Positions 3,770 to 18,089 of a stretch of DNA of 24,672 nucleotides are shown in pieces. Location: NCBI GenBank assembly GCA_016930275.1, contig JAFGHA010000179.1:1-24672 (forward strand). The letters run 5' to 3'. The position numbers were made by a program, and so were the translations under genes. A model generated the notes under the pieces. The model was not told where the DNA came from. It did not search any database and was given only the letters and a program-made list of their open reading frames with translations. Origin of the DNA: Chitinispirillaceae bacterium (GTDB lineage Bacteria; Fibrobacterota; Chitinivibrionia; Chitinivibrionales; Chitinispirillaceae). Numbering within the stretch: the first letter of the stretch is position 1; each line of letters opens with the position of its first letter.

Positions 3770-4549
3770 ATGAAAATTCTGCTCTGTGTTTATTCGAACA
3801 TGGGAAATACCCTGGCTGCCTGCGAATACCTCATCAGAAAGCTTCCGCAACAGGATATACTTCTTCACGACATCACCTCAAGCGACGATGTCAACCTTGA
3901 CCTGTATGATGCGGTCGGATTCGCCACCTGGTCGCATTTCCTCGTTTCCCCGGCTCTTTTCTCCCGTTTTGTCAATTCGTTGCCGCGCCGGAGCGGCACA
4001 CCGGCGTTCGTATTCAATACGTTCGGTAATTTCAATGCCGGCACGCTGGCGCATATCTGCAGTCTGGTTGCAAAACGCGGCTTCAAAATCATTGCCGCCG
4101 ATGCGCTGCATATGCCCGATACGCGTCCCGTCATGATCTGCATGCACAACGCGAATGCCGACGCACCGCACAAAGAGGAGCTCGATGCATTCGACCGTTT
4201 CATCAGCCGGCTTGCCGGACTTCTTTCCGGCGACATCTCCACCGCCCCCATCTTCAGACTGCCGCCCTCCCGCCGATTCGCGCTCCGCCTCCCCCGCTGG
4301 CTCGGTACCTGGCAGATGGGACCGAAGTTTGTTGATGCGGACACATGTATCCGGTGTGGTCTCTGCGCGCGGAACTGCCCCTACGGGGCCATCACGATGG
4401 ATGGTCTTCCCCGGTTCCATGAATCGAAATGCGCCGCCTGCTGGCGCTGTTACAACCGCTGCCCCACCCAGGCGATTTACACGAAGAAATACCGGGGCCG
4501 GGGGCATTACCCGGAACCGCTGCCGGCAGTGCGGGAGAAGCTGGAATAA
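3770..4549 (+). CDS. flavodoxin-like domain fused to a 2x[4Fe-4S] ferredoxin domain (EFR1-type ferredoxin)
   Basis: The N-terminal MKILLCVYSNMGNT...AVGFATW resembles a flavodoxin-like fold. The C-terminus has two cluster motifs, CIRCGLCARNCP and CAACWRCYNRCP. Confidence 0.85.
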   Translation: MKILLCVYSNMGNTLAACEYLIRKLPQQDILLHDITSSDDVNLDLYDAVGFATWSHFLVSPALFSRFVNSLPRRSGTPAFVFNTFGNFNAGTLAHICSLVAKRGFKIIAADALHMPDTRPVMICMHNANADAPHKEELDAFDRFISRLAGLLSGDISTAPIFRLPPSRRFALRLPRWLGTWQMGPKFVDADTCIRCGLCARNCPYGAITMDGLPRFHESKCAACWRCYNRCPTQAIYTKKYRGRGHYPEPLPAVREKLE

Positions 4550-4677
4550 GCTCGATCCCGAGATGCGATTACGCTTCTGTCATACTCCTCAGGAGAACGT
4601 TCTTCTCAATTGCTCATTTTAAATAGTATCATTATTATTTACGCAGCTGCGGATCAACAGCAACCTGTGGGAACCCC

Positions 4678-5571
4678 ATGTACCTCTTCTCACGAAATTA
4701 TTTCAAAGACGTTTTTCAGAACCCGGGCGACGCGCTGCTCATCCTGCGACGACAACGGAGTATCGTCTGGTACCAGTTAACCCGATTCTTCATTTTCTGG
4801 CGGATCGTGTTTTCGGAGTACGTGCTTAACCACTGCATCACCCGCAGTTCGGCGCTCGCCTATGCACTGCTGCTCGCCATCGTGCCGCTGGTGACCACCG
4901 CGGCGTTCATGATCGCCGGGTTCATCGAGGTGCAGCCCGAGCAGGTGCGGCAGTTCTTCGCACTGCTGCTGCCGTTCGCCCCCGATACCGTCCTTGAATA
5001 CATCACGATATTTTTTGTCAATGCACAGAAACTGCGCGGCGTGGGAATCATCGTGCTGATGGTGGTTGCCGTGGGGCTCTTCGGCAGTGTCGAGGAGTCG
5101 TACAACACCATCTGGAAAGTCGTCCGGTCACGGTCGATCTTCGTGCGGTTGCGTACCTTCACCATGGTGATGGTCTACAGCCCGCTGCTGTTCCTGATGT
5201 CGTTCCAGTTCCGGCGCAGCGAATGGTTCGATCTGGTATCGGGGTATTTCCTGCCGCTCGACATGGTACCCTTTCTCCTCATGGTACTTGCCTTCACCAG
5301 CCTTATCGTATTCGTTCCCAACACCAAGGTAGACTTTGTTTCCGCCATTGCCGGCGGACTCATTTCCGCGCTTTTCTTTGAATTGGAACGGCGGGGATTC
5401 AGCATGATCGTCAGGGCGTCCTTCCAGACCCAGACGATCTACGGCGCGGTCGGCATGCTGCCGCTCTTTCTGCTGTCACTGTTTCTGGCCGCGCTGATCA
5501 TTCTCTTCGGGGCACAGGTCGCGTACGTCTTTCAGAACTTCAAACCGCTCCTGCGTGCGAAACGGCGCTAG
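4678..5571 (+). CDS. YihY/BrkB-family polytopic inner-membrane protein
   Basis: The family-typical RSSALAYALLLAIVPLV motif sits near the N-terminus. At least 6 hydrophobic helices follow, and the tail ends with GAQVAYVFQN, as in YihY/BrkB proteins. Confidence 0.8.
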   Translation: MYLFSRNYFKDVFQNPGDALLILRRQRSIVWYQLTRFFIFWRIVFSEYVLNHCITRSSALAYALLLAIVPLVTTAAFMIAGFIEVQPEQVRQFFALLLPFAPDTVLEYITIFFVNAQKLRGVGIIVLMVVAVGLFGSVEESYNTIWKVVRSRSIFVRLRTFTMVMVYSPLLFLMSFQFRRSEWFDLVSGYFLPLDMVPFLLMVLAFTSLIVFVPNTKVDFVSAIAGGLISALFFELERRGFSMIVRASFQTQTIYGAVGMLPLFLLSLFLAALIILFGAQVAYVFQNFKPLLRAKRR

Positions 5572-8282: not shown

Positions 8283-8744
8283 ATGCAGTCAATCTTCGTT
8301 CTCTTTGCCTTCTGTATTCTGCTGGGTTCTTCGACTGGGAGTACCATAGTTACACAGGAAACCGTCCCGGTCGCGTCGGCCACTTCCCCTACCGGTACCT
8401 TCAAACTGATAACCGTCAACCGTGACTCATCCGTTACGGAAACCGGAACAGACTTTTCCACGGTAGTGAGTAACGATACGGTACCGGTACTCATTCATTT
8501 TTCCGCCGAATGGGCCGCGCCCTGCAAGACAATGCATCCGGTCCTGGTTGAAACGGCGAAAAAGTTCAGTAAACGGGCATTTGTCGGTACAGTGGATATC
8601 GAGGAGTCACCGGAAGTAGGAGCGTATTATATGATCCGCTCGGTTCCGACGTTTGTGGTTCTTGTGAAAGGACGGGAGGTCGCCCGTTCCGTCGGCATGA
8701 TGACCCAGAAGAAGCTTGCCGGTCTGGTTGAGATCAAACGGTAG
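8283..8744 (+). CDS. secreted thioredoxin-fold protein with a degenerate monothiol active site (WAAPC)
   Basis: The signal peptide MQSIFVLFAFCILLGSS is followed by a Thr/Ser/Val-rich linker. The Trx core is VLIHFSAEWAAPCKTMHPVL...VDIEESPEVGAYYMIRSVPTFVVLVKG. The canonical WCGPC is replaced by WAAPC, so the first Cys is lost and the second is kept. Confidence 0.8.
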   Translation: MQSIFVLFAFCILLGSSTGSTIVTQETVPVASATSPTGTFKLITVNRDSSVTETGTDFSTVVSNDTVPVLIHFSAEWAAPCKTMHPVLVETAKKFSKRAFVGTVDIEESPEVGAYYMIRSVPTFVVLVKGREVARSVGMMTQKKLAGLVEIKR

Positions 8745-8754
8745 AACGGTGGAT

Positions 8755-11700
8755 TCATTGTTTCTGTTTGCCGGTACGGCAAAACTCCTGGTACCGTTTA
8801 ACGGCTGCAGTGTGCTCTGATTCGGGAACATACTTGCTCTCAATCTTAGCACCAATTATCCCCTCAGGTAGATCAAAGGTTAAGAGTGTTTCACCCCGCA
8901 GGAGTACCCATGTTTTCGTGGTCGACCTGCATCGATCCATTTCTCCGAAAAACAACGTCAAGGCACCGGTATCAGCAATAGTCCAGTTTCCATAGCGCAG
9001 GAAAATATCCCCGGGCTGCATTCCAAGCGAATCGGCAATGGTGTTCGGAAAAACCTGAAAGATTTTCATGGTGACCACCACTTGTTTCCCGTTAATATCG
9101 TAAAATGTTTCGGATGTAATCTTTCCGCTGTCATCGTATGCCTTGTCCCACCTGGTATATCCACCCCTGGTTCGAACCGGTTTCCCATCAAGTCCGAGGA
9201 AAAGACTGGTGGTTACATTTCCACTCTGATCATACGTATCCCTGCATTTGGCATATCCTTCAGCCAATAAAAATGGAGCACCTTCCGAATTAAAAAATTC
9301 TCTCAGCTTGACATGATCAACAGTATCATGGGTAACGATCATTTTTGCATAACCGAAATTACTTATTACCGGTTTACCCTCGGTACCGAACGTCTCATAG
9401 GAGCATAGCTCTCCCCGCGCGTTGTAACTGAAGGCCGTACGGGCGTATCCATCCTTGTTTAAAACCGGCTTTCCATCGATGCCGAAGAAGGCTTCCGACG
9501 TTGTATTACTTTGGTTATCATATGTTAATTTAGTCGAAGCATAACCTCCAACAGCAACCGGTTTCCCGTCTAAACCAAAGGTAGTAACTTCCGTACGTTT
9601 CCCCTGCCGGTTGTATTTTGCAGTCCATCTCGTATAACCGTCCTTCTGCAGGACAGGCAGTCCTTTTTCATCGAAATAACTCACCTCAGTTCTATTTCCA
9701 TGCTCATCGTTTTTCATCCGCACCTTGTGGTATCCATCAGCCCAGAGCAATGGTCGTTTTTCTGAATCGAAAAGTGATATCTCTTTTAAAAAACCGTTCT
9801 CATCATAGTCGTAACACTGCCATGTGTTTATTGAAAAATCATAAGCGGACGTCTTTCTTACATTGACATCATAACCTTCTTTAACTAATGTATCTCCCTT
9901 TTCATCATATTGATAAATAGACTTTGCGATACCTGTACTTTTTACACCCACCGCACCGCCGTCAACATCAAGAAATTCCACAGTGACCTTGTTACCGTAA
10001 GCATCAAAAGTTTGTTTCATCCTGGCAAAACCTTCATTACACCGTTGCAATTCTCCGTCGGTACCAAACATTTCAATCTCTGTGCAGTTATTATAAATAT
10101 CATGGTGATATATGTATTTTGAAATCCCGAGTTCGTTAACCACCGGCTGTCCTTTTATACCGAAGGCCTCTTCTTCAATCATATTGCCACGATCATCATA
10201 TCGTCTGACAATTTTTGCCGATCTTTTACTGTTTTGTACGGGAAGACTATCCGCTCCAAAAAATTCACTGACAACCGGGTTGCCACGCTCATCCCGGGAT
10301 ACAACGGCACGCGAATACCCGTCAGGAATCATTACAGGCTGTCCAACCGAATCGAAATATGCGACCGAAATGATATCTCCACTTTCATTATAATCCAATT
10401 CCAGTTTCGAGTAGCCCGTTTTTTTATTTGTCACAGGTTTTCCTGCGATCCCGAAATATTCAGTCTGCAGACAATTTCCCTGGTCATCGCAGATATACCG
10501 TTCACTTGCCACACCTTGTTCATTCAACGCCGGTTTATCATCCGCATCAAGATACACCACTTCTATAATATTCCCTCGTTCATCATAGGTGTAAATCCGT
10601 GTTGCATACCCAACCCCCTTCCTGCCCGGATTCTCATTCGCATCAAAATACCGTTCCTCCTCCACAACATTGAATTTATCATGGTATTTCAACTCCAGTT
10701 TCGCATACCCGTCTTTGCCGACAACATAATTCCCATTCGCATCAAAACATTCAATTTGAACCCTGTTATTTCTTTCATCATATCTATAGGCAAAACTTGA
10801 ACATCCATCTTTGCTCATTGCAGGTTTTCCATCAATGCCATAATAGGAACCCGATATCTGTAATCCCCGGCTATTGTTTACTAAAACAATTTTTGAGTAA
10901 CCGCCCATATACAACGCAGGGTTCCCGACCGTATCACGATACTCTTCAGAGGTAACATTTCCCATCTGATCATAGGTCCACACCCTTTTATGATAGCCGT
11001 ATTTGTCCATTACAGGGCTGCCATTATCCCCCAGAAACGCCTGGGATACCTTGTTCCCATTCCGGTCATATTCATACACTTGCTTTGAATATCCCTCGTT
11101 CAGAATCGCGGGCCGGCAATCCAATCCAAAACACGATACTGATGTACTATTCCCGTAAGAATCATAGGTAAACCTTATCTCCGCACATCCGGCTCTAAAA
11201 ATAAAAGGCTCACCATCCGGCCCGATGTATTCCTGACTAACTCCTTCACCATCCTTGTTCCATACCTGTTTTGTTCCCATTAAACCATTTTTAAGTGCCG
11301 CCGGTTCTCCCTTCGAATTCAGATATAAAATCCATATTACTGTCTCTGCATCTTCCAATCTGGTCATCTCGCCGAAACTGCCAGTCGCATCACAGACATT
11401 ATTTCCGAGATAATCACGATAGCGACGTACTATAGTTCGACCATTAACGTCCAGAACCAGCAGGTGCTGACTGACTTTCGATTTTCGTTGAATATTGGTG
11501 AACCCGGCATCCGCATTAAATTCCACTCCTCCCTGATGAGCTGTTGTGTGGTCAAGGCTCTTAAGATCGATATAAATCGAATCCGGCCTGGCGTTACTGT
11601 CGGACAGACCGTAACCATAGTTCCACACCATAACAACTTTCCCCAGCCAATCTTTCTGCACGATCCGCTCCACTTTCCCGTCCTGCCGGTAGTCGATGCT

Positions 11701-12588
11701 CAGCTCCGCCACCCCTAATAACCCCCCCTCCAGATCCATCAGCTGGCCTTTACTGTTGACATACCCCGCTCGGACCACCTTCCCCCCGCGCTCTTCCAGC
11801 CGCCAGGTGCGATAGCGGTGGGAATGAAATTTCCGGGATACCCACCCCACCCCTTCGGGTGCGCCCCACCGCCAGGTAATGTTGCGGTAATACCGTACCT
11901 TGACACGGGTGTAATCCCACCAGGCCAAATATCCTCCCGCGATAAGCAGCACGACCGCCCCAATCGCGCCGATCTGCAACCGCAGCCGCCGCATACGACG
12001 CTGATGCTCCCGCCGTCGCAGTTCATCATAGGAACAACCGAGCACATGCGCCAGGATTCTCAGAAGCGCATTTGATTTGAGCGTTTTCAGCGGTTCAGAC
12101 GCACGCAGCCGCACATCCGCAAAGAGCGGTTCGGCATCCTCGTCTCCTTCAACGGCTGTTCCGTCTTCCCGCTGCACCACTTTTTTCAGTTCACGCAAAG
12201 CCTGCGGAAACGATTCTTCCGGAGTGCCTTCAATAAGCAACGGAATAATGCAATGCCCGCGCCCCATTTCCCTGAACTGCGCCACCTCCTGGTTTACCCA
12301 GCGCGATTTCGGAGTCGACCGTGAACAGATCACCACCAGGAATTTCGATGCGGCAAGAGCGTTTTTTATGTCATCCTTGAGGTCTGCCGAGGTTGGCAGT
12401 TCGTCCTCGTCGCGGAATACTCTCTTGAGCTTTGCGGGAATACCCTTTTTCACCAGTGCCGCAGGCGTCCGGAACGTTTCCAGCGCATGTATCAGCCACT
12501 GTGCATACTCGCGGTCGGCATCAAGATGCCGGTAGCTTATGAAAACGTCATATTCGAACACACTGCCTTTGTCGAGTTCTTCAGACAC
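8755..12588 (-). CDS. N-terminal TIR domain, single TM helix, long extracytoplasmic 32-aa repeat array and a C-terminal PDZ-like domain (1277 aa)
   Basis: GTG start with AGGAGA 7 nt upstream. The TIR region is YDVFISYRHLDAD...FLVVICSRSTPKSRWVNQEVAQF...IIPLLIEG, with the candidate catalytic Glu at aa 101. The TM helix LQIGAIGAVVLLIAGGYLAWW covers about aa 204-224. At least 22 repeat units follow. The PDZ-like end is SLGMQPGDIFLRYGNWTI...WVLLRGETLLTFDLP (about nt 8836-9075). Confidence 0.9.
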   Translation of the reverse strand: MSEELDKGSVFEYDVFISYRHLDADREYAQWLIHALETFRTPAALVKKGIPAKLKRVFRDEDELPTSADLKDDIKNALAASKFLVVICSRSTPKSRWVNQEVAQFREMGRGHCIIPLLIEGTPEESFPQALRELKKVVQREDGTAVEGDEDAEPLFADVRLRASEPLKTLKSNALLRILAHVLGCSYDELRRREHQRRMRRLRLQIGAIGAVVLLIAGGYLAWWDYTRVKVRYYRNITWRWGAPEGVGWVSRKFHSHRYRTWRLEERGGKVVRAGYVNSKGQLMDLEGGLLGVAELSIDYRQDGKVERIVQKDWLGKVVMVWNYGYGLSDSNARPDSIYIDLKSLDHTTAHQGGVEFNADAGFTNIQRKSKVSQHLLVLDVNGRTIVRRYRDYLGNNVCDATGSFGEMTRLEDAETVIWILYLNSKGEPAALKNGLMGTKQVWNKDGEGVSQEYIGPDGEPFIFRAGCAEIRFTYDSYGNSTSVSCFGLDCRPAILNEGYSKQVYEYDRNGNKVSQAFLGDNGSPVMDKYGYHKRVWTYDQMGNVTSEEYRDTVGNPALYMGGYSKIVLVNNSRGLQISGSYYGIDGKPAMSKDGCSSFAYRYDERNNRVQIECFDANGNYVVGKDGYAKLELKYHDKFNVVEEERYFDANENPGRKGVGYATRIYTYDERGNIIEVVYLDADDKPALNEQGVASERYICDDQGNCLQTEYFGIAGKPVTNKKTGYSKLELDYNESGDIISVAYFDSVGQPVMIPDGYSRAVVSRDERGNPVVSEFFGADSLPVQNSKRSAKIVRRYDDRGNMIEEEAFGIKGQPVVNELGISKYIYHHDIYNNCTEIEMFGTDGELQRCNEGFARMKQTFDAYGNKVTVEFLDVDGGAVGVKSTGIAKSIYQYDEKGDTLVKEGYDVNVRKTSAYDFSINTWQCYDYDENGFLKEISLFDSEKRPLLWADGYHKVRMKNDEHGNRTEVSYFDEKGLPVLQKDGYTRWTAKYNRQGKRTEVTTFGLDGKPVAVGGYASTKLTYDNQSNTTSEAFFGIDGKPVLNKDGYARTAFSYNARGELCSYETFGTEGKPVISNFGYAKMIVTHDTVDHVKLREFFNSEGAPFLLAEGYAKCRDTYDQSGNVTTSLFLGLDGKPVRTRGGYTRWDKAYDDSGKITSETFYDINGKQVVVTMKIFQVFPNTIADSLGMQPGDIFLRYGNWTIADTGALTLFFGEMDRCRSTTKTWVLLRGETLLTFDLPEGIIGAKIESKYVPESEHTAAVKRYQEFCRTGKQKQ
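9076..11190 (-). repeat. coding tandem repeat: at least 22 consecutive 31-34-aa units, consensus G-Y-[AS]-K-x5-Y-D-x2-G-N-x6-[YF]-F-G-x-D-G-K-P-V-x4
   Basis: Read from the translation at aa 467-1171. Examples are GYSKQVYEYDRNGNKVSQAFLGDNGSPVMDKY, GYSKLELDYNESGDIISVAYFDSVGQPVMIPD, GYASTKLTYDNQSNTTSEAFFGIDGKPVLNKD and GYAKCRDTYDQSGNVTTSLFLGLDGKPVRTRG. More degenerate copies extend upstream to about nt 11800. The units are diverged at the DNA level, so this is not a slippage-type repeat. Confidence 0.75.
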
Positions 12589-12614
12589 TGTCGTTCTCCT
12601 GTCTCATACAAATC

Positions 12615-12642
12615 ATTATGACTAAATTATTGCTACAGACAA
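12615..12642 (-). promoter_or_regulatory. candidate sigma70-type promoter for the TIR-repeat gene
   Basis: The - strand reads TTGTCT (12642-12637), a 16-nt spacer, then CATAAT (12620-12615), inside the AT-rich 104-nt spacer between the two TIR genes. This is a motif match only, and the promoter consensus of this organism is unknown. Confidence 0.25.
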
Positions 12643-12692
12643 ATACCCAAAATAGTCCATTGACACAGCAGGATCATTGCACCGGCTCAATC

Positions 12693-14543
12693 TCACCATG
12701 CGAAAATTCCCCCGGCGACAAGGAACAATACGGCACCAATTACCGCGGCTAATTGCCACAAACGCCGTATGCGACGCTGCCGTTCCCGCTGTCGAAGTTC
12801 GTCGAACGAGCAGCCCAGCACTTGCGCAACAATACGTAAGAGCGCCATAGACCTAAGTTTCTTCACCGATTCTCCTGACCGCGGCCGCACATCGGCAAAA
12901 AGCGGTTCAACATCCTCGTCACTTTCAACAAATGTTCCATCCTCGCGATTCACTACTTTTTTCAGTGCACGCAGGGCCGGCGGAAACGATTCTTCCGGCG
13001 AACCTTCAATGAGTAGTGGGATAATATGGTGCCCACGTCCCATCTCCCTGAACTGCACGACCTCCTGGTTTACCCAGCGTGATTGCGGTGTTGCGGGGGA
13101 GCAGATAACCACCAGAAAATTCGAGGCGGAAAGTGCTCGTGTTATATCATCTTTAAGATTCGCGGAGGTTGGCAGTTCATCTTCATCCCGGAAAACCTTT
13201 GTCAATCGTGACTTAGTTCCTTTTTTGACCAGTGGCAGAGGAGTGCGGAACATTTCGAGCGCATTGACTAACCACAGAGCATATTCACGGTCGGCATCAA
13301 CATGCCGGTAACTGATAAATGCATCATACTCATACCCGTTTTCAATACCGGCATTTTCCGGTACAATCATTATTCGTATACTATTGTAAAGTTCACTGTA
13401 TAGTCGTATAGCTAAGGCTGGGATTCGAAATTTGTTCATTGCCCTATTGTCGAGCACACGCAGATATACTCCAGCTACCAGCCAGCAGGAAACAGTCCAG
13501 TACCCGCCATACCCCGCGAATGGCATAGGAATAAAGGGTACCAGCCGCACCACCCCCGTTGATCTGGTTATATGTGCAATTGCTAAAAAAATAAGAATAA
13601 ATAACAGTACCCGGGCGACTTCTCGACTGTTTTCATCGCGTATTTTTCGACATCCTGCCCACATTACATATGCCAGTACTGCATAAACTCCACACAGTAT
13701 CGCCACTCCGATGCCACCGAACTCATACCATAACATTTGCAGCGTGGAATGAGCCGCCAGTAGTTCATACCTGACAGTATTCTTATTCAAACACTGTTGA
13801 CCGTTACGGTCCTTTGTATCCGATTGCACCCACGACTTGTAGCAGTTGCGACTGTCATGCAACCGGGCCGCCGCACGAACCTGATGAGCAGACGCTTTAT
13901 CGTATACTACCTCGTTATAGTCCGGATTGAACTTCACCAGCAGTAATATCGCCACAACACCACACACCACCGGCACAAGTGCAAGGGTGATTTTTATACC
14001 GGGCATACGCGAGACCAGCACCATATACAAAACCGTTGCATTGAAAAGCAGCAGCATCGCCGTGTCCGGCTGCAGTAACAGAAGCCCGTTGACGGCAACG
14101 GTCAACCCCGCGACTGCACCCGGATATTTCCAACCGTCCTTTTTACGGCAATCAGTGAAAATCAGATGCACCAGCAGCGGCAGAAGAAGGAGCAATGCCA
14201 AAGTTCCGGAATGCAGCGGGAAAGGCCCAAACCAAACAATCTGGGGCTCTCCAGAGCAAAAAGGACCCCATTGACCGCATTGGGCTTGGGCTGTAAGGAG
14301 GAGAACTCCCGCAGCTGCAGCAAGGTGATACCTGCTTCCACGCCAATTAACTCTGACCAGCACAAGCGATGTCGCAAGAACAATTCCGAAACAGTTTCTG
14401 CTCAGGAATCGCATGAAATATTCGATATCGAATCCTGCGAACGACCAGAATTGCCGGGTAAGATACCCGCCGATTATCGTCAGGGCCAGCATCAAACCAA
14501 CAATCAGGACTGCTGTGCCGATATTCCGTTCGGTTGTTCTCAT
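12693..14543 (-). CDS. polytopic FtsW/RodA/SpoVE (SEDS)-like membrane domain fused to a TIR domain and a C-terminal TM helix (616 aa)
   Basis: ATG with GGAGA 9 nt upstream. In aa 1-365 the SEDS-like motifs occur in the right order: LLLLQPDTAMLLLF (compare QPDLGT), ELLAAHSTLQMLWYEFGGIGVAIL (compare PE.HTDFIF..i.EE.G..G) and PFIPMPFAGYGGYWTV (compare g.pLPf.SYGGS). In aa 405-585 the TIR region is YDAFISYRHVDAD...FLVVICSPATPQSRWVNQEVVQF...IIPLLIEG. The terminal TM helix is LAAVIGAVLFLVAGGIFAW. Confidence 0.8.
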   Translation of the reverse strand: MRTTERNIGTAVLIVGLMLALTIIGGYLTRQFWSFAGFDIEYFMRFLSRNCFGIVLATSLVLVRVNWRGSRYHLAAAAGVLLLTAQAQCGQWGPFCSGEPQIVWFGPFPLHSGTLALLLLLPLLVHLIFTDCRKKDGWKYPGAVAGLTVAVNGLLLLQPDTAMLLLFNATVLYMVLVSRMPGIKITLALVPVVCGVVAILLLVKFNPDYNEVVYDKASAHQVRAAARLHDSRNCYKSWVQSDTKDRNGQQCLNKNTVRYELLAAHSTLQMLWYEFGGIGVAILCGVYAVLAYVMWAGCRKIRDENSREVARVLLFILIFLAIAHITRSTGVVRLVPFIPMPFAGYGGYWTVSCWLVAGVYLRVLDNRAMNKFRIPALAIRLYSELYNSIRIMIVPENAGIENGYEYDAFISYRHVDADREYALWLVNALEMFRTPLPLVKKGTKSRLTKVFRDEDELPTSANLKDDITRALSASNFLVVICSPATPQSRWVNQEVVQFREMGRGHHIIPLLIEGSPEESFPPALRALKKVVNREDGTFVESDEDVEPLFADVRPRSGESVKKLRSMALLRIVAQVLGCSFDELRQRERQRRIRRLWQLAAVIGAVLFLVAGGIFAW

Positions 14544-17504: not shown

Positions 17505-18089
17505 TTACACCTCTCCGAATAACTGTTCCACCAGATGCTGCAACTGCCCCACCAGTGGTTCGCACCGAAGCCCCGTAGACCGTTTTCCGAACAGACGTAC
17601 CAGTTCCCGGTAATACCACCGGGCTCCATCCTTTCCACCGTTGAAACGCTCCCAGACCATATCACCGGCAATCGCGACATCTGCAGCGATATCACTGAGG
17701 TTACAGAATTTATCCGCCGCGGCAACGGCGAGAGCTTGCTCATCAACGGTCATCAGCCGGGTAATGGTCCGCTGCTTTTTTCCCCGCCACCCGTCATCCT
17801 GATCATGAAAGGTCACCTGCTCAACAATACCGGTAATTCCCTCACCGAACTCTCCCGCCAGTTCACTGCGGGTCACGGTGGTATCCTCCAGTACATCATG
17901 CAGTATACCGGCCGTTACCACCGGATCGTCACACCCGAGCCGTACCAGTGTGCGGGCGACGTCGAGCGGATGACAGAGGTACGGTATGCGGGTGCATTTC
18001 CGGAATTGCCCCGCATGCGCCCGGGCTGCGAAAACCGTAGCTTTGAAAACAAACGTTCCCTCAACGGAATTGTTTCGCCAATTCTCCAC
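17505..18089 (-). CDS. stand-alone HD-domain (p)ppGpp-hydrolase-like protein (small alarmone hydrolase / SpoT-Mesh1 HD_4 type)
   Basis: GTG start with GAAAGG upstream. ARAHAGQFRKCTRIPYLCHPLDVA...AGILHDVLEDTTVT...EFGEGITGIVEQVT matches the H..Q.R / PY..HP..VA / LHD..EDT / FG..v...V..vT signature of SpoT-type hydrolase domains. The later AAADKFCNL corresponds to the ADRL.N helix. Confidence 0.85.
   Translation of the reverse strand: MENWRNNSVEGTFVFKATVFAARAHAGQFRKCTRIPYLCHPLDVARTLVRLGCDDPVVTAGILHDVLEDTTVTRSELAGEFGEGITGIVEQVTFHDQDDGWRGKKQRTITRLMTVDEQALAVAAADKFCNLSDIAADVAIAGDMVWERFNGGKDGARWYYRELVRLFGKRSTGLRCEPLVGQLQHLVEQLFGEV

Follow-up and report, generated by a model that had tools for sequence, protein, structure and literature searches.

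To our knowledge, the only role described for SEDS proteins (FtsW, RodA and SpoVE) is that of essential peptidoglycan polymerases, and they are antibiotic targets. Bacterial TIR immunity has been described mainly for soluble proteins, and its triggers are largely unknown. The catalytic Asp of SEDS polymerases is D262 in E. coli RodA (D255 in T. thermophilus), and the substitutions D262A and P257A each inactivate the E. coli enzyme (PMC10449877). Among TIR-based defence systems, type I Thoeris has a SLOG domain that receives the TIR signal, and type III Thoeris combines a SLOG-domain effector with more than one TIR protein (10.64898/2025.12.03.692087). Here we describe a gene that joins a SEDS-derived membrane domain to a TIR domain, found in a 24,672-nt stretch of DNA (contig JAFGHA010000179.1, assembly GCA_016930275.1; referred to below as the window) from the metagenome-assembled genome (MAG) of an uncultured member of the Chitinispirillaceae (Fibrobacterota). 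The domain has the SEDS fold and lacks the known catalytic residues, and the best overall explanation for the fusion, to which we assign a probability of about 0.4, is that this dead SEDS domain would act as a sensor of the envelope or of lipid-linked precursors and would gate the TIR domain, by analogy with the TIR receptors from which the TIR portion derives.

The fusion gene is an ATG-to-TGA open reading frame (ORF) of 616 codons on the minus strand, with a Shine-Dalgarno (SD)-like GGAG 9 nt 5' of the ATG (Table 1). Its product is identical to the NCBI entry P0001, which is annotated only as 'MAG: TIR domain-containing protein [Chitinispirillaceae bacterium]' and forms a cluster of one. When Lys and Arg residues in the short loops were counted using the helix boundaries of an AlphaFold2 (AF2) model, 13 were cytoplasmic and one was periplasmic. 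This positive-inside count is in line with the N-in/C-in topology of SEDS proteins and therefore places the TIR domain in the cytoplasm. The terminal hydrophobic helix, at about residues 594-616 by both hydropathy and AF2, crosses the membrane outward and ends at the periplasmic face without an ectodomain. An initial annotation of this gene, made from the sequence alone, had described an in-frame cytoplasmic TIR domain followed by a terminal transmembrane (TM) helix, in agreement with the topology count, and it had also placed the motifs QPD (residues 158-160), FPLHSGTL (108-115), EFGGIG (274-279) and PMPFAGYGGY (339-348) correctly. We considered whether the sequence might instead represent two separate genes, with a TIR-TM ORF starting at Met391, and found this unlikely as no stop codon lies between the halves and Met391, unlike the two annotated starts at the locus, has no SD-like site before it. 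The SEDS-TIR architecture as such is very probably real. Pairs of Cys residues are present in the predicted periplasmic loops of the fusion protein (C89/C96 and C234/C251).

The ten helices at the N-terminus make up a domain derived from the SEDS peptidoglycan polymerases FtsW/RodA. The Pfam SEDS profile PF01098 matched the fusion protein with an E-value of 4.2e-5 over profile positions 107-352 of 356, at a score (23.1 bits) below the gathering score of 26.4, and the NCBIfam rodA and ftsW models matched with E-values of 1.5e-7 (30.9 bits versus a cut-off of 336.7) and 1.6e-6, respectively. A hidden Markov model (HMM) built from 110 canonical SEDS proteins matched in two pieces, residues 13-202 and 274-370, with an E-value of 1.5e-16. 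A word-index search with residues 1-400 returned only the fusion protein itself and three RodA sequences, a single-sequence search against PDB sequences returned only TIR proteins, and an exhaustive HMMER search with residues 1-400 against 1.84 billion representative sequences returned ten proteins in total. The best match was P0005, a 372-residue protein from a 'Fibrobacter sp.' MAG, which is about 34-35% identical to the fusion protein over approximately 370 residues (E 2.5e-40) and which itself scores 99.7 bits on PF01098. Despite the sub-threshold direct score, the SEDS homology of the fusion protein is thus secure, based on the transitive relationship from the fusion protein through P0005 to PF01098 together with the HMM of canonical SEDS proteins.

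For structure prediction the two halves of the fusion protein, residues 1-400 and 395-616, were modelled separately with AF2. The model of residues 1-400 contained ten TM helices, with a mean predicted local distance difference test (pLDDT) score of 83 and a predicted TM-score (pTM) of 0.83. A Foldseek search of this model against the PDB identified as significant matches only structures of FtsW (8p1u, 8bh1) and RodA (6bas, 6bar, 6pl5/6, 8tj3), with E-values of 6e-10 to 1e-6 (target TM-scores 0.68-0.80), and the next match had an E-value of 0.07 and a TM-score of 0.16. The alignment used to model residues 1-400 consisted mostly of SEDS sequences, so that this test of the fold is supportive and not independent. 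The SEDS fold that the initial annotation had claimed for approximately the first 370 residues was upheld by the profile HMMs, the P0005 bridge and the AF2/Foldseek comparisons, and neither the sequence nor the fold searches assigned the domain to another polytopic family, for which O-antigen ligase had been named as the example. Specifically, an O-antigen ligase or Wzy identity (PF04932) was rejected after no Wzy_C match was obtained at E<=1 and no WaaL structure at a Foldseek E-value of <=0.001. NCBIfam also gave a weak match to HpsL, a polysaccharide-related model (E 6.6e-4, 18.4 bits versus a cut-off of 640).

The fusion domain shares with FtsW, RodA and SpoVE the ten-TM fold, the N-in/C-in orientation and the QPD, E-x-G-x-x-G and PF.(S/G)YGG motifs. 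It differs from them in having His265 in place of the Asp, in the loss of the Glu and Lys of the QPSE..K motif and of the conserved Arg and Pro, in a periplasmic loop 4 that cannot be aligned to canonical SEDS proteins, in its sub-gathering Pfam score and in its C-terminal TIR domain. Its genomic setting also differs, in that the window has no class B penicillin-binding protein (bPBP) partner and no dcw or mrd context: none of the ORFs of >=100 codons in the 24.7-kb window encodes a transpeptidase or PBP_dimer domain, and no cell-wall or glycan-synthesis genes were found in the window.

The extent of the catalytic losses was determined by a column audit, in which residues conserved in the 110 canonical SEDS proteins were compared with those of the fusion protein and of four relatives, P0005, P0006, P0007 and P0013 (given below in that order). 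The Gln of QPSE..K, present in 99% of canonical sequences, is His111 in the fusion protein and His, Gln, Tyr and Arg in the relatives. The Pro of this motif is Ser112 in the fusion protein, the Glu (98%) is Thr114, with Thr, Val, Pro and His in the relatives, and the Lys (97%) is Leu117, with Ile, Leu, Ile and Ile. The Arg of alignment column 508, found in 100% of canonical sequences, falls in a gap in the fusion protein and P0005 and is Ser, Arg and Gln in P0006, P0007 and P0013. The Pro corresponding to E. coli RodA P257 (96%) is Leu262, with Lys, Ile, Pro and Met in the relatives.

The position of the catalytic Asp was assigned by counting. A count of 11 residues back from the invariant Gly of the E-x-G motif, with no gap, arrives at the Asp in 110 of 110 canonical SEDS proteins; in the fusion protein this Gly is Gly276. 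In addition, a Gln seven residues before this Gly is present in the fusion protein and all four relatives and not in canonical SEDS proteins. The ungapped register anchored on Q269, E274 and G276 therefore puts His265 at the Asp position, which is Ser, Lys, Lys and Thr in P0005, P0006, P0007 and P0013, respectively. An alternative register, aligning HTDF with HSTL so that the Asp would correspond to Thr267, was dropped in favor of the ungapped one; MAFFT had placed a gap in this column, and HMMER left the loop unaligned. The initial annotation had proposed that the catalytic Asp was replaced by Thr and that the domain had lost catalysis. The first proposal was correct as to the loss, and the replacing residue is His265, not Thr. 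The second was borne out by the absence of the Asp, Glu/Lys, Arg and Pro, with the column audit and the register count giving no indication that the catalytic residues are in fact conserved, except that the loss is not peculiar to the fusion and is common to a pre-existing clade formed with P0005, P0006, P0007 and P0013.

Among the conserved positions retained in the fusion protein are QPD160, E274, G276 and G279, and P341, Y345, G346 and G347. Loop 4 was modelled with a pLDDT of only about 48-56 over residues 210-260. Judged from these residues, the fold has been kept and the known catalytic apparatus is gone. Polymerization of lipid II by the SEDS domain of the fusion protein is very unlikely because the catalytic Asp and the other residues for glycosyl transfer have been lost.

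The clade to which the fusion domain belongs is a very rare and divergent group of SEDS proteins, comprising five clusters among the 1.84 billion representatives. All five members have the changes of Ser to Gly (G344 in the fusion protein) and Gly to Pro (P336), no Asp at -11, a Gln at -7 and loss of the Glu and Lys of TM4. Since the loss of catalytic residues is common to the four relatives, none of which has a TIR domain, it is older than the fusion. The partners of these relatives are either degenerate bPBPs or ankyrin/WG-repeat proteins. P0007 (911 residues, L006:3698-6433) is itself a SEDS-bPBP fusion, whose transpeptidase domain has EPGNDIAN versus EPGSTFK in SpoVD. P0006 is overlapped by the gene for a 520-residue bPBP (L007:2303-3865 plus 3852-5036 for the two genes together) with HLGPVIQP versus EPGSAIKP in gonococcal PBP2. 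Both of these bPBPs are without the nucleophile Ser and the Lys of SxxK, which suggests that whole SEDS-bPBP pairs may have lost both of their enzymatic activities. The best PDB matches of both bPBPs were of the SpoVD/FtsI type, and this hints that the clade arose from FtsW-FtsI pairs. P0007 has its parts in the same order as the fusion protein (SEDS domain, cytoplasmic linker, TM helix), with the difference that no periplasmic domain follows the terminal TM helix of the fusion protein.

The gene for P0005 is followed by that of a 520-residue WG_beta_rep and Ank protein with a signal-peptide-like N-terminus (L001:1694-3256), and the gene for P0013 by that of a 1370-residue Ank protein (L005:6541-10653). 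An ankyrin-repeat gene thus follows both of the closest stand-alone relatives of the fusion domain, a recurrent pairing. Overall, these proteins give the impression of a non-catalytic lineage that branched off from SEDS-bPBP pairs and has been changing partners. We found no description of SEDS pseudo-enzymes in the literature searched.

The TIR portion of the fusion protein was identified by TIR_2 (PF13676) over residues 409-528 (E 9.7e-13, 49.1 bits versus a threshold of 28), by ThsB_TIR (E 6e-9, 36.7 bits versus 21.2) and, at a score barely above threshold, by TIR (PF01582; 21.7 versus 21.3 bits). The AF2 model of residues 395-616 (pLDDT 93) consisted of a TIR fold followed by two helices (module residues 166-182 and 186-221), the second of which is continuous with the TM helix. 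Foldseek matched the TIR model to 49 TIR structures in the PDB at E<=1e-3, and the nearest of these were NADase TIRs, namely TIR-1/SARM1, RUN1, RPV1, AbTir, RPP1 and SPARTA. Glu494 lies in the sequence S-R-W-V-N-Q-E (S-x-W-x-x-x-E), in the helix that comes after strand C, and is kept in 121 of 122 family members. Its counterpart in plant TIRs is the Glu of WCxxEL (WCLMEL in flax L6/L7), with which it aligns. A Glu of this type is what we take to be established as the catalytic residue of SARM1 and plant TIRs. By alignment, then, the fusion TIR keeps the putative catalytic Glu of NAD-cleaving TIRs.

The origin of the TIR-connector-TM cassette was apparent from the gene immediately downstream, which encodes a TIR-TM protein with a YD-repeat ectodomain. 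Residues 404-616 of the fusion protein were 73% identical to residues 11-223 of this paralogue in an ungapped BLASTP alignment of 213 residues (E 4e-93), and no similarity to the paralogue was detected upstream of residue 404. The cassette is therefore a duplicate of the beginning of the downstream gene that was cut right after the TM helix, a duplication that the initial annotation did not spot. At the nucleotide level the two copies are 72% identical (49% at third positions), with a synonymous divergence (dS) of about 1.75 and a ratio of non-synonymous to synonymous divergence (dN/dS) of 0.095. By part, the TIR core and the TM helix had dN/dS values of 0.084 and 0.083, against 0.112 for the connector. 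The high dS and the low dN/dS together indicate that the duplication is old and that both copies have been under purifying selection. The TGA stop codon of the fusion gene corresponds to a TGG codon (Trp224) in the paralogue, and residual nucleotide similarity extends a few codons past the stop into the intergenic sequence (12589-12692), where the fusion gene has TGG TGA GAT T.. and the paralogue TGG TGG GAT T... This suggests that a nonsense mutation truncated the copy and that the copied ectodomain then decayed or was deleted.

The cassette is also 35-56% identical to more than 120 membrane TIR proteins, annotated as 'toll/interleukin-1 receptor domain-containing protein'. The search that found these returned only proteins of <=382 residues, and neither the fusion protein nor its 1277-residue neighbor; it was evidently biased toward short or truncated proteins and may have passed over other TIR fusions in which a long domain comes first. 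Members of this family have their TIR domain at the N-terminus, strand A being preceded by a median of 11.5 residues (maximum 115), and a hydrophobic helix follows the TIR domain in 72 of the 79 relatives covering that region. Full-length examples of 814 and 918 residues occur in cultured bacteria, Butyrivibrio and Sinorhizobium, respectively. These membrane TIR receptors share with the fusion protein the TIR-connector-TM arrangement and the F-x-S-Y-x-H, FRD..E and S-x-W-x-x-x-E motifs. They differ in that their TIR domain is N-terminal and their TM helix is followed by an ectodomain, whereas in the fusion protein a polytopic domain of approximately 400 residues comes first and nothing follows the TM helix. 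The ectodomain of the paralogue comprises about 900 residues of YD/RHS-like repeats of approximately 40 residues each, and its C-terminal 100 or so residues gave a weak match to the PDZ region of MamE. The paralogue has the appearance of a TIR receptor whose repeat ectodomain is very large.

No other SEDS-TIR fusion, and no orthologue of this one, was found among 15 billion proteins by the word-index and exhaustive searches. Scans of genome and metagenome contigs with an alignment of the fusion protein and P0005 recovered the P0005 locus only, plasmids were matched by the TIR part only, and phages gave no match. No paper on a SEDS-TIR or FtsW-TIR fusion was found in the literature, and the statement in the initial annotation that no such fusion had been described held across the protein, contig, plasmid, phage and literature searches. 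The parts of the fusion protein are of known kinds, a SEDS fold and a membrane TIR receptor, and their combination was not found elsewhere in the databases searched.

The fusion gene is the third of four minus-strand genes separated by gaps of 52-209 bp, in the order HD_4, RelA/SpoT-SLOG-RyR, fusion and TIR-TM-YD (Table 1), and terminator-like sites between them were not above chance.

Table 1. Positions in the window of the fusion gene, its parts and its neighbors (nt, forward-strand numbering).
Feature	Position	Strand	Basis or remark
Whole fusion ORF	12693..14543	(-)	Order: SEDS-like domain, linker, TIR, connector helix, TM helix
Polytopic domain of SEDS (FtsW/RodA) fold with ten TM helices, N-in/C-in, aa 5-370	13434..14531	(-)	PF01098, P0005 bridge, AF2, Foldseek, K/R count
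Degenerate QPSE..K segment, aa 108-117, FPLHSGTLAL	14193..14222	(-)	Column audit versus 110 canonical SEDS
Retained QPD, aa 158-160	14064..14072	(-)	Invariant in clade; D in 98% of canonical SEDS
Periplasmic loop 4, aa 206-266, ending with His265 at the catalytic Asp position	13746..13928	(-)	HMM alignment, pLDDT, register count
Retained C-terminal SEDS motifs, Q269..E274-F-G276-G-I-G279 (start of TM8) to P341-F-A-G-Y-G-G347	13503..13724	(-)	Column audit and register count
Cytoplasmic linker, aa 371-403, fusion junction; predicted helix 376-393	13335..13433	(-)	AF2 secondary structure; paralogue similarity starts only at aa 404
TIR domain, aa 404-545; putative catalytic Glu494 (codon 13062-13064)	12909..13334	(-)	Pfam, AF2, Foldseek, family conservation
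Helical connector from TIR to membrane, aa 546-590	12774..12908	(-)	AF2 helices; dN/dS versus paralogue
C-terminal TM helix, aa 591-616; TGA stop at 12693-12695	12696..12773	(-)	Hydropathy; dN/dS versus paralogue
Downstream paralogue gene, 1277 aa, TIR-TM-YD-repeat ectodomain	8755..12588	(-)	Pfam/NCBIfam TIR and YD repeat
Paralogous (donor-type) TIR-connector-TM module, aa 11-223 of downstream gene	11920..12558	(-)	BLASTP
YD/RHS-like repeat ectodomain of paralogue	8755..11916	(-)	
RelA/SpoT synthetase-like (aa 49-192), SLOG/LSDAT_prok (aa 551-710) and RyR (aa 826-884) gene; 899 aa	14596..17295	(-)	Pfam
HD_4 gene (SpoT/Mesh1-type small alarmone hydrolase-like)	17505..18089	(-)	PF13328, E 1.7e-17
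Thioredoxin-fold gene	8283..8744	(+)	
TrkA_N-RyR gene, 614 aa	6128..7972	(-)	

The gene for the RelA/SpoT-SLOG-RyR protein lies 52 bp upstream of the fusion gene and is co-directional with it. Its product matched the small alarmone synthetase (SAS) YjbM and RyR repeats in the PDB and keeps the EIQIRT..W..H motif. The match of its SLOG region to LSDAT_prok was marginal (25.9 bits versus 25.4), and no relatives of the protein were found in metagenome contigs. The locus has in common with Thoeris two TIR proteins, each with a catalytic-type Glu, adjoining a SLOG-superfamily protein; ThsB_TIR was also matched by the paralogue, with E-values of 6e-9 and 1e-9 for the two TIRs. The locus differs from Thoeris in that its TIR proteins are integral to the membrane, the SLOG protein carries RelA/SpoT-like and RyR domains in place of SIR2, and the association is not recurrent. 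Based on adjacency alone, a Thoeris-like reading of the locus would nevertheless be attractive.

HD enzymes of the small alarmone hydrolase (SAH) type neutralize toxSAS toxins, which are toxic RelA/SpoT homologues (PMC7229694). As in toxSAS/SAH pairs, the HD_4 hydrolase gene is directly upstream of a RelA/SpoT synthetase-like gene, and the two neighbors of the fusion gene resemble such a pair with an added nucleotide-sensor domain. By this analogy the HD_4 product is a candidate antidote. The synthetase-like neighbor differs from toxSAS proteins in being 899 residues long with SLOG and RyR domains, not a single-domain SAS, and the likeness concerns the neighbors and not the fusion gene.

A second RyR protein (614 residues, with N-terminal hydrophobic helices, a TrkA_N domain and a C-terminal RyR domain) is encoded approximately 800 bp downstream of the TIR-YD gene, so that the RyR domain, which is uncommon in bacteria, occurs twice within 11 kb. 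Between these two genes is a thioredoxin-fold gene, whose product has a signal-peptide-like N-terminus and the active site sequence WAAPCK versus WCGPCK, and hence a single Cys. The fusion gene had a GC content at third codon positions (GC3) of 0.49-0.50 and the YD-repeat ectodomain one of 0.45, compared to 0.60 in the paralogue TIR-TM region and 0.59-0.78 in the flanking genes. This dip in GC3 across 8755-14543 may reflect foreign origin or other codon constraints.

The proposed role of the dead SEDS domain as a gating sensor takes its logic from the parent TIR family, in which an extracytoplasmic domain would control the cytoplasmic TIR through the TM helix. The initial annotation had proposed that the pseudo-enzyme would read lipid II, undecaprenyl-linked intermediates or the state of the divisome or elongasome. 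That ectodomain of the parent family is gone in the fusion protein, and the input would instead come through the SEDS bundle. Against this bundle the terminal TM helix may be packed, as the anchor helix of a bPBP is against SEDS TM8/9, an arrangement in keeping with the order of parts in P0007. Self-association of the TIR domains would then change when an undecaprenyl-linked ligand binds or when the envelope or the cell-wall machinery is disturbed, and mixed assemblies with the 73%-identical neighbor are possible. Once switched on, the TIR would cleave NAD+ or make a signal derived from ADP-ribose (ADPR), for which the RelA/SpoT-SLOG protein and the HD hydrolase would be the most plausible local readers, following a Thoeris-like logic. 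We also considered a more elaborate version, in which an FtsW/FtsI-derived lineage of pseudo-enzymes would serve as envelope sensors for lipid II, other undecaprenyl-linked intermediates or the condition of the cell-wall machinery, the dead SEDS domain would gate a TIR NADase, the SLOG-RelA/SpoT-RyR protein would read the ADPR-derived product, the HD enzyme would reset the system and the outcome of this Thoeris-like immune or stress pathway would be an alarmone-type growth arrest. We consider this version improbable.

Several observations weigh against the sensor proposal. The fusion is a singleton on one MAG contig, with no orthologue seen in the databases searched. The periplasmic loop that would face a substrate is the least confidently modelled and least conserved part of the domain. 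P0005 and P0013 adjoin ankyrin/WG-repeat genes and not TIR genes, and the clade has no single recurrent partner. With respect to the proposed readers, four loci encoding homologues of the TIR module (on two long contigs and two plasmids, a small sample) had no SLOG, RelA or HD neighbors, and scores on the curated Thoeris models were far too low, with ThcB4 at 18.3 bits versus a cut-off of 220, the PADLOC model ThsB1 matched by the paralogue only (E 0.006) and no ThsA matches. Lastly, a slight chance of altered chemistry comes with a His (His265) in the place of the Asp, as WaaL has His338 in a role analogous to that of the SEDS Asp (PMC10449877).

The alternative that survives best is that the SEDS bundle is a mere anchor or assembly platform, and that the fusion protein is an accessory subunit of the TIR-TM-YD receptor, whose ectodomain would do the sensing while the fusion protein may tune or nucleate TIR oligomerization. 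The adjacent and co-directional arrangement of the two genes fits such a role, as do the 73% identity of the cassettes with their common small-residue TM motif (IGAV..L.AGG..AW), the lack of any ectodomain in the fusion protein, the loss of most of the SEDS cavity residues and the poor conservation of loop 4. However, a plain anchor needs neither ten helices nor the QPD, Q..ExG..G and PF.GYG motifs, nor identity to P0005, and the cassette already has its own TM helix as an anchor. We consider this explanation possible, though on the unlikely side.

Less probable again is that the gene is a functionless by-product, in which a truncated TIR duplicate was joined to a decaying SEDS paralogue, or an artifact of MAG assembly or annotation. 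The absence of a second example in all databases searched could be taken in this way, as could the end of the ORF at a TGG to TGA change relative to the paralogue, the GC3 of 0.49-0.50 against 0.59-0.78 in most neighbors and the loss of the catalytic residues. Against this, a dN/dS of 0.08-0.11 at saturated dS means that the two TIR-TM copies have been under constraint during most of the time since they separated, all 616 codons are open behind a good SD-like site, and the ten TM helices were modelled at high confidence with the family motifs kept. The paralogues, at 72% nucleotide identity, are too divergent for an assembly collapse, and the residue losses are common to intact relatives in other organisms.

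It is also conceivable, though we think it most improbable, that the SEDS bundle is the effector and not the sensor, with TIR activation (for example by the neighboring receptor) opening or disordering the bundle and damaging the membrane, as in the TM effectors of CBASS and Thoeris. RodA structures reveal a large cavity in the SEDS fold that is exposed to the membrane, a feature that would suit such a role. SEDS proteins are not known to form pores, and known TM effectors bind their signal by a dedicated sensor domain and not by a TIR. Many predicted Thoeris effectors do carry TM helices, but the characterized bacterial TIRs either make signals or consume NAD (10.64898/2025.12.03.692087). The remaining explanation, that the domain is an active non-canonical transferase or polymerase of lipid-linked glycans using His265 or another base and regulated or localized by the TIR, is far-fetched: even though His265 is exactly at the Asp position, a His serves in WaaL (PMC10449877), QPD160 and the YGG of the RodA active-site shell are kept and HpsL was weakly matched, the Asp position varies across the clade (H/S/K/K/T), the Glu, Lys, Arg and Pro found in 96-100% of canonical proteins are gone (and E. 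coli RodA has been proven to need the Pro), the bPBPs partnering with clade members are without a nucleophile, no glycan-synthesis genes flank the fusion gene and Wzy_C/WaaL was matched neither by sequence nor by fold.

These findings carry limited weight, coming as they do from one gene in one metagenome-assembled genome, and the lineage of dead SEDS and dead bPBP proteins with shifting partners may merit more attention than the fusion itself. If true, these findings would be the first indication that the SEDS fold has been reused for non-enzymatic jobs, with dead PBPs, ankyrin proteins and a TIR domain as its partners. A TIR domain wired to a fold that binds cell-wall precursors would, if true, provide a concrete input for TIR activation at the membrane. 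On the same condition, it would also suggest that surveillance of the envelope may be linked to NAD-derived signals and to alarmone synthetases.

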